A stretch of 20,162 nt of DNA from a virus (IMGVR_UViG_3300045988_024768:1-20162); one strand, 5' to 3'; positions 19,813 to 20,162 are shown, counted from the first letter of the stretch. Program-made: numbers and translations. The notes: a model not told the origin generated them from the letters alone.

Positions 19813-19816
19813 AAAT

Positions 19817-19839
19817 AAAGCCCCAGCTATTGGGGCTTT
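19817..19839. terminator. Bidirectional intrinsic terminator (AAAGCCCCA-GCTAT-TGGGGCTTT)
   Basis: 9-bp stem and 5-nt loop, flanked by an A-tract on one side and a T-tract on the other. Sits between the convergent tailspike (stop 19812) and acyltransferase (stop 19844) genes. Confidence 0.8.
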
Positions 19840-19843
19840 ATTG

Positions 19844-20162
19844 TCATTTGCCAAATATAATCCTCCCGACAAATAATTTGTTTGATAAAAAATATATGCA
19901 CGAAGATACAATTACTATCAACAATAAATTAATGGTGTATTTATTTGATATTTCGTGAGTTTTAATTATATCTATAATCAATGGATGAATTAAGTAAATG
20001 GCAACTGATGCAGAGCCTAAGAATGATATTAATATATTTCCGTTAATTTTAATTTTTGTAAACATAGCAACAGCAGCTATTGATAAAGGAATTGATATAA
20101 ATGGAACCTCATATTCAAGTCCGTGAGTAAAGTTAAAATTGTATTCAATTACACTTAATACA
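19844..20162 (-). CDS. Acyltransferase family 3 membrane protein (O-antigen/LPS O-acetyltransferase-like), C-terminal part; 5' end off window
   Basis: The minus-strand frame stays open to the window edge (hand-translated ...FTHGLEYEVPFISIPLSIAAVAMFTKIKING...). The C-terminal ...SASVAIYLIHPLIIDII... matches the acyltransferase-3 hallmark region as I recall it. Very AT-rich and hydrophobic. Confidence 0.55.
   Translation of the reverse strand, partial: VLSVIEYNFNFTHGLEYEVPFISIPLSIAAVAMFTKIKINGNILISFLGSASVAIYLIHPLIIDIIKTHEISNKYTINLLLIVIVSSCIYFLSNKLFVGRIIFGK

Follow-up and report, generated by a model that had tools for sequence, protein, structure and literature searches.

Which gene lies convergent with the tailspike gene at the end of the 20,162-nucleotide (nt) viral stretch IMGVR_UViG_3300045988_024768, and could its product modify the surface polysaccharide that this tailspike recognizes? 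A preliminary description of the stretch, whose whole length is referred to here as the window, had proposed an AT-rich acyltransferase-3 (AT3) gene at the window edge that might act in O-antigen-modifying lysogenic conversion. Our comparative analysis assigns window positions 19844-20161 to the last 105 codons of a gene encoding a predicted 304-amino-acid (aa) AT3-only membrane acyltransferase. We also found that a block of approximately 2.5 kb, composed of the tailspike receptor-binding domain, the terminator and the AT3 gene, recurs in three phage backbones (an E. coli Uetakevirus, a P22/Sf6-like prophage and a Proteus mirabilis prophage) and in two host genera. The best joint explanation, which we hold with considerable confidence, is that the gene is an AT3-only acyltransferase moron of a Uetakevirus, whose product would mask the surface polysaccharide bound by the adjacent tailspike and so lead to serotype conversion and superinfection exclusion.

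The acyltransferase gene at the window edge

The minus-strand frame entered at position 20161 remains open for 105 codons up to a TGA stop at 19844-19846, whereas each of the remaining five frames of 19844-20162 contains 4-14 stops. At the fragment's own base composition, the chance probability of 105 open codons is approximately 1.3e-4. The translation begins with VLSVIEYNF, holds SASVAIYLIHPLIIDII and ends with RIIFGK before the stop, the full 105-aa reading being VLSVIEYNFNFTHGLEYEVPFISIPLSIAAVAMFTKIKINGNILISFLGSASVAIYLIHPLIIDIIKTHEISNKYTINLLLIVIVSSCIYFLSNKLFVGRIIFGK. The window holds the last third of the AT3 gene, and the remainder lies beyond its edge. According to hydropathy analysis, this portion spans the final stretch of one transmembrane helix, the three C-terminal helices and an S-x-x-x-IYLIHP motif. 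Its G+C content (GC) is 26%; the phage backbone stands at 50% and the tailspike gene, in its distal half, at 41%.

When compared with the Pfam family Acyl_transf_3 (PF01757), the 105-aa fragment matches profile positions 245-313 of 326 with an E-value of 1.7e-5 and 24.5 bits, and it matches PHROG 3333, “O-acetyltransferase,” with an E-value of 1.2e-4. It also aligns to residues 272-320 of the 338 residues of phiV10 Oac, with 42% identity over 50 aa. The preliminary description had pointed to an open minus-strand frame ending at 19844, an AT-rich composition, a hydrophobic C-terminus and a hallmark motif of O-antigen acetyltransferases. All four features are borne out, the C-terminus by the three helices in the window part and the motif by the two alignments to PF01757 and phiV10 Oac.

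Identification of the complete gene required relatives that extend beyond the window. A word-indexed protein search with the 105-aa fragment returned a truncated 110-aa protein as its sole match, and an exhaustive HMMER search returned a single match, P0002, a 304-aa “acyltransferase family protein” of Proteus mirabilis. The C-terminal 108 residues of P0002 are 56% identical to the fragment, and the protein matches the AT3 domain in full, with 97 bits. Through a 169-aa E. coli protein clustered with the first match, we reached E. coli prophage contigs that carry the gene interrupted by a frameshift. The reading frame of this split gene was restored, and the resulting 304-aa query, used for a renewed search, recovered four full-length E. 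coli alleles (P0008, P0009, P0010 and P0011). Residues 200-304 of P0009 (304 aa) are 100% identical to the 105 aa of the window. Its 915-nt gene has the same sequence in five independent public contigs (L017-L021), all five of which are 100% identical at the nucleotide level to the 350 bases at 19813-20162.

The full-length family assignment was made on these proxy copies, identical in nucleotide sequence over the overlap, and not on the source sequence. P0009 reaches 96.3 bits on PF01757 (cut-off 31) and covers profile positions 2-313 of 326, while P0008, P0010, P0011 and P0002 reach 95-97 bits. Its match to PHROG 3333 has an E-value of 1.4e-14. Extension past position 20162 combined with an AT3 profile search, as the preliminary description had suggested, supports an AT3 protein through these relatives, and the concern raised there that the complete frame might encode something else is not borne out.

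Proteins of the AT3 family share the motifs R/K-X10-H and V-X-X-F-F-X-(I/V/L)-S-G-(F/W/Y) (PMC9558356). In the part of P0009 outside the window, K13-X10-H24 is present in the first transmembrane helix, with K13 and H24 invariant in a 10-sequence alignment, and V46-P-A-F-F-I-I-S-G-Y55 is present as well. Compared with the roughly ten transmembrane helices expected of a polytopic AT3 protein, the AlphaFold2 model of P0009 is all-helical, with approximately 12 helical segments, a predicted local distance difference test score (pLDDT) of 75 and a predicted template modeling score (pTM) of 0.80. The best fold matches of this model in the PDB are to HGSNAT, an acetyl-CoA-dependent transmembrane acetyltransferase, and they are weak (probability 0.87-0.90, TM-score 0.40-0.49, E-value approximately 0.4).

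Direct searches for closer relatives were largely negative. A PDB sequence search with the AT3 protein found no relative, and NCBIfam gave nothing useful for full-length P0009, with a weak match to a VanT membrane domain. Degenerate peptide scans derived from the fragment alignment yielded no confirmed relative in the viral_contigs, genome_contigs and metagenome_contigs collections, and exact matching of 42-46-mers did not recover the source sequence from any of the three. With 19780-20162 as the query, blastn (“distant”) was negative against both a set of 5,426 complete E. coli genomes and a set of 50,697 phage records, and tblastn of the fragment against the phage records was likewise negative. 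The tblastn search of P0009 against the 50,697 phage records gave two matches, both below 30% identity and both in unannotated faecal contigs. Orthology to a characterized Oac is not supported by these data, as overall identity to phiV10 Oac is 25% and no homologue in the phage database exceeds 30% identity. The gene represents an allele and subfamily not described before, within a familiar class of phage cargo.

A block shared by three phage backbones

We assign the carrier to the temperate phiV10-like E. coli phages (Uetakevirus), based on a collinear structural module: window positions 1-17000 are 98% identical, over 95-98% of their length, to phiv142-3, PAS61, HEMP4, phiV10 and ZX5. In phiV10, the gene order is tail fibre (plus strand), oac (minus strand), membrane protein, holin, endolysin, Rz and integrase. 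In contigs L017-L021, the AT3 gene faces a 759-aa tailspike in convergent orientation, and behind the AT3 gene come a holin_8-like protein, a holin, a GH19 endolysin and Rz. Beyond Rz lie the host genes yfgI/yfgH...ppx-ppk, which mark the end of an integrated prophage, or, in L020, an integrase as in the phiV10 genome. The AT3 gene lies approximately 2.5 kb from the prophage end in these relatives. Because it is placed between the tailspike and the lysis cassette in contigs with the identical gene, we regard it as phage cargo and not as a host gene.

The association of this gene with the tailspike extends well beyond the genus. The window aligns continuously from 18139 to 20148 with the Proteus mirabilis prophage L004 at 81% nt identity, a stretch that runs from the distal tailspike through the intergenic region into the AT3 fragment. 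Comparison of full-length E. coli and Proteus copies places one edge of the block 13-63 nt upstream of the AT3 start, depending on the copy, and the other at approximately tailspike residue 203, where the N-terminal part gives way to the receptor-binding domain. Identity across the block is 78% at the nucleotide level for the Proteus copy and 87% for the P22/Sf6-like copy. The E. coli and Proteus tailspikes are more than 90% identical in the distal region, which includes the receptor-binding domain, and approximately 50% identical in the N-terminal adaptor. The backbone that carries P0011 is a P22/Sf6-like prophage with an integrase, an S24-like protein, the AT3 gene and a convergent 676-aa P22-type tailspike with a Tail_spike_N domain. 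The last 534 residues of this tailspike, encoded in L026, are 96% identical to residues 226-759 of the window tailspike, and the nucleotide block in common with L026 starts exactly at the ATG of the AT3 gene.

Both parts of the block bear signs of constraint. Among alleles, the ratio of nonsynonymous to synonymous substitution rates (dN/dS) is 0.09-0.17 for the AT3 gene and 0.04-0.10 for the receptor-binding domain. The window fragment differs from the nearest other allele at 17, 7 and 33 sites at codon positions 1, 2 and 3, respectively. Given the low dN/dS and the concentration of differences by codon position, the AT3 gene is maintained by selection.

Additional genes were observed in two of the contigs. 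In L027, a P22/Sf6-like prophage contig, a 494-aa reverse-transcriptase (RVT_1) gene at 1802-3286 lies between the S24-like and AT3 genes and is absent from the equivalent L026; it may belong to a retron, a group II intron or other reverse-transcriptase cargo. In L004, beside the lysis cassette of the Proteus mirabilis prophage, positions 1117-5445 and 7453-7974 encode AAA_15 / OLD-TOPRIM and UvrD-helicase proteins and an IS200-type Y1 transposase. The AAA_15 / OLD-TOPRIM and UvrD-helicase pair is Gabija-like and has 28% GC.

Proposed function and its alternatives

The characterized O-acetyltransferases of temperate podoviruses provide the model for the proposed function. Accounts citing Perry 2009 (PMC11854483, PMC9558356) state that phiV10 Oac modifies the O157 antigen and that a strain expressing it is immune to phiV10. 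Similarly, acetylation by Sf6 Oac hinders the phage's own endorhamnosidase tailspike and confers superinfection immunity (PMC9558356). In relatives of the window, a promoter-like element that matches the consensus (TTGACT-16-TAACAT) lies 34 nt upstream of the ATG, outside the window, with a TTGACT element that is conserved in Proteus as well as in E. coli. The AT3 gene is therefore predicted to be an independent transcription unit, that is, a moron with its own sigma-70-like promoter and a shared terminator.

By analogy with phiV10 Oac and Sf6 Oac, the gene would be expressed in the lysogen from this promoter. The enzyme would take an acetyl group across the inner membrane from cytoplasmic acetyl-CoA, the presumed donor. 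Its O-acetylation target would be the repeat unit of the surface polysaccharide bound or cleaved by the neighbouring tailspike domain, most likely the host O-antigen. The acetylated surface of the lysogen would be a poor substrate for the phage's own tailspike, and the expected outcome would be serotype conversion together with exclusion of further infection by the same phage.

Of the known systems, phiV10 Oac (PhiV10p26) is the nearest in context. The two phages belong to the same genus, with structural genes 98% identical, and the two acyltransferase genes occupy the same slot, convergent with the tail fibre or tailspike gene and followed by the same lysis cassette, as expected from the serotype-conversion arrangement envisaged in the preliminary description. 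Both products are AT3-only proteins of approximately 300-340 aa, encoded by genes of low GC (31% in phiV10 oac and 26% in the present gene), and both contain the C-terminal motif IYL(V/I)HPLIIDI. They differ in that the proteins belong to different AT3 subfamilies and are not orthologues, and in that the genes are paired with different receptor-binding domains, the phiV10 tail fibre matching only the N-terminal third of the tailspike. The KRANR (RXXR) loop of phiV10 Oac has no conserved counterpart in the present protein, and the function demonstrated for phiV10 Oac is proposed here by analogy.

The Sf6 Oac / S. flexneri oac family also involves a temperate podovirus that encodes an AT3-only O-acetyltransferase, and the P0011 allele stands in the int / AT3 / tailspike (Tail_spike_N) arrangement of a P22/Sf6-like prophage. 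No close sequence relationship to Sf6 Oac emerged from the tblastn search of P0009 against the phage records, and the present protein lacks the RXXR motif. An acyltransferase also occupies the place between tailspike and lysis genes in other Uetakeviruses, including the Enterobacter phage Tyrion (gp23, 624 aa, convergent; cited in PMC9558356) and the E. coli phage PAS61 (618 aa, “O-antigen acetylase”). These acyltransferases have the same presumed role but are AT3-SGNH fusions of approximately 620 aa, in contrast to the 304-aa AT3-only protein described here, and the PAS61 gene is co-oriented with its tailspike. The Proteus mirabilis protein P0002 (e.g., HCQ9179027.1) is a true homologue, with 62% identity to the P0008-type allele and 55-56% to the window's 105 aa. 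It also has 304 aa, and its gene is convergent with a homologous tailspike receptor-binding domain beside a lysis cassette. Its backbone (36-40% GC, with a Peptidase_M15 endolysin), host genus and intergenic sequence are different.

Several observations weigh against the proposed function. With only 25% overall identity to phiV10 Oac, neither substrate nor regiochemistry can be transferred from that enzyme. The RXXR motif of the first cytoplasmic loop is essential in Sf6 Oac (PMC9558356), and neither RxxR nor [KR]xx[KR] occurs anywhere in P0009, whose loop holds K63 and K70 only; the aligned residues are KISK in the Proteus homologue and RANR in phiV10 Oac. The window fragment alone falls below the PF01757 gathering cut-off (24.5 versus 31 bits), which we attribute to its containing only the last third of the domain, and it has no match in NCBIfam. 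The tailspike target may be a capsule instead of the O-antigen, and acylation may be neutral to the tailspike, or even required by it, rather than blocking. Furthermore, gene copies do become inactivated, as P0008-type copies are frameshifted in four of six contigs, and that the 5' 597 nt are intact in the source itself is deduced from other contigs.

An alternative explanation is that the AT3 protein acylates a glycan other than the tailspike receptor, such as capsule, enterobacterial common antigen, osmoregulated periplasmic glucans or peptidoglycan, or that it serves immune evasion or the exclusion of other phages, its adjacency to the tailspike reflecting a permissive cargo slot. AT3-only proteins acylate many acceptors (PMC9558356), and the slot between tailspike and lysis cassette is variable in Uetakeviruses, being empty in TW10722 and phiv142-3. 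The low identity to phiV10 Oac and the missing RXXR motif would also fit a different acceptor. Against this stands the co-inheritance of the AT3 gene with a specific receptor-binding domain as a 2.5-kb block in three unrelated backbones and two host genera, which is hard to explain unless the enzyme and the tailspike act on the same type of polysaccharide. This linkage of the gene to one receptor specificity is the strongest indirect argument for a common target, and we consider another acceptor unlikely.

A further question is whether the copy in the source could be decayed or switched off upstream of the window edge, leaving a remnant without a lysogenic-conversion function. The window ends at codon 200, and the sister allele, of the P0008 type (82% nt identity to the window fragment), illustrates how such a loss can occur. 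In its two intact copies (L028 and L029), the poly-A tract located at gene nt 385 is an A7; three contigs have A6 and one has A8. In the frameshifted copies, namely L009 (9595-10510), L010, L011 and L012, the gene is split into open reading frames (ORFs) of 131 or 144 aa plus 169 aa. A junction inside the gene in contig L001, described below, points in the same direction. Conversely, the window's own allele has an in-frame A6 tract broken by a T (AATAAAAAATC) and is intact and identical in nucleotide sequence in all five contigs that carry it. The window matches these intact copies completely over the 350 common bases, and strong purifying selection is observed across alleles. We therefore judge a decayed source copy to be quite improbable. 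The P0008-type frameshifts, which occur in both directions at one hotspot, may reflect slipped-strand on/off switching, recurrent inactivation or sequencing error.

Contig L001, a Logan contig, had raised the suspicion of a truncated remnant, because all three of its reading frames run into stops 88 nt beyond the end of the window. This candidate was rejected, as the stops follow an inversion or foldback junction found in a single contig. Positions 1-30 of L001 match, in reverse complement, a segment of the same AT3 gene located approximately 270 nt further upstream (TTTCATTAAAAATTCACCTTTAGACGCTTA), with a joint of 3-4 nt of microhomology. The junction represents either a real inversion within the gene in that sample or an assembly foldback.

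Finally, it can hardly be the case that the frame is a host chromosomal gene outside the prophage, a concern of the preliminary description, or a chance ORF in AT-rich DNA: low-GC, AT-rich acyltransferases are also found in O-antigen gene clusters and the window shows nothing beyond its edge, but the probability of a frame this long is approximately 1e-4, and all relatives have the tailspike next to the gene at one end and holin/endolysin/Rz at the other, with yfgI/yfgH, ppx and ppk only past Rz, which refutes a host location for the relatives.

Masking of the tailspike receptor by a phage-encoded acyltransferase remains our preferred explanation. Beyond it, we tentatively put forward a broader proposal, to which we assign somewhat less than even chances. 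The block of approximately 2.5 kb may be a self-contained, horizontally exchanged “recognise-and-mask the receptor” module that moves as a single piece across unrelated podovirus backbones and across genera. Its enzyme would constitute an undescribed AT3-only subfamily that works without RXXR, and one of its alleles may switch off and on by slippage at the A7 tract.

Neighbouring features and implications

The tailspike ORF and the AT3 gene are convergent, with stop codons 31 nt apart, and the features of this region are listed in Table 1. The hairpin between the stops has a GCCCC/GGGGC core, with a T-run on the minus strand and UUUAUUGU past the GC core on the plus strand. Its predicted folding energies are -18.3 and -18.5 kcal/mol on the two strands (z-scores of -3.5 and -3.0), and it is 100% conserved across all E. 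coli Uetakevirus relatives despite divergence of the flanks. The Proteus locus differs between the stop codons, with 64.5% nt identity. A 12-bp hairpin in a 31-nt gap that folds equally well on either strand is in line with the shared terminator suggested in the preliminary description and likely acts as a bidirectional intrinsic terminator.

Table 1. Coordinates and supporting evidence for the window features discussed in the text
Feature	Coordinates	Strand	Evidence
AT3-only acyltransferase gene, 3' end (codons 200-304 and TGA)	19844..20161	-	Translation, Pfam, PHROG, identity to P0009, hydropathy
Shared intergenic hairpin, likely bidirectional intrinsic terminator	19814..19842		12-bp stem with 5 GC pairs, T-run, folding
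Tailspike receptor-binding / probable depolymerase domain (aa 226-759)	18208..19812	+	Identity to other tailspikes
Tailspike N-terminal particle-binding (adaptor) part, epsilon15/phiV10 type	17533..18207	+	PHROG, relatives' gene calls, ribosome-binding site context
Small epsilon15 gp19-like gene (85 aa) upstream of the tailspike; backbone context, outside the module	17078..17335	-	PHROG 450

The tailspike probably starts at the ATG at 17533, which is preceded by GGAG, and not at the ATG at 17461: the PHROG tail-protein matches begin at residue 25 of the 783-aa ORF, and relatives' gene calls have 759 aa. Its adaptor part is 83-89% identical in nucleotide sequence to phiV10-like phages. In the lytic E. 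coli phages C1 and S192, from which the AT3 gene is absent, the tail fibre is 84-86% identical to the receptor-binding domain at the nucleotide level; a literature search on these two phages found no receptor information. The domain also has a short match to the start of the LKA1 gp49 and phi297 gp27 tailspikes. Over the last approximately 470 nt of the tailspike gene (19345-19812), identity falls to 92-97% relative to relatives that are 100% identical on either side. The sub-patches of difference vary by relative, a pattern that resembles recombination of short segments at the C-terminal tip of the domain.

Upstream of the tailspike, PHROG 450 matches residues 71-155 of a 155-aa minus-strand ORF (17078-17545). 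The actual gene is the 85-aa epsilon15 gp19-like one at 17078-17335, whose counterparts are phiV10p24 and the genes of 85 aa called in the relatives. The mechanical ORF list over-extends both this ORF and the tailspike, with its 17461 start. A terminator-like hairpin at 16699-16722 follows an 824-aa structural gene and precedes a 98-aa gene (16749-17045) that matches PHROG 3075 and has a weak holin-like Pfam match. Within the ORF at 9392-12274, which encodes a large virion protein, close relatives align on both sides of 10172-10502 but not across these approximately 330 nt. GC dips to 45% in this segment, which represents a replaced or hypervariable part of an internal or injection-type protein.

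The principle of receptor modification has been known since Sf6, P22, epsilon15 and phiV10. The arrangement and logic of the present locus match those of phiV10, Sf6 and related phages and represent no new kind of biology. The comparative result nevertheless provides a clean natural example of a receptor-binding domain and its presumed receptor-masking enzyme inherited as a unit, and from the block one can readily predict the tailspike against which a given acyltransferase protects. If the proposed function is correct, lysogens would display an acetylated variant of their surface polysaccharide, with changes in serotyping, in antibody recognition and in sensitivity to any phage or depolymerase with the same receptor-binding domain. 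The affected phages would include the lytic phages C1 and S192, which have the domain without the AT3 gene.
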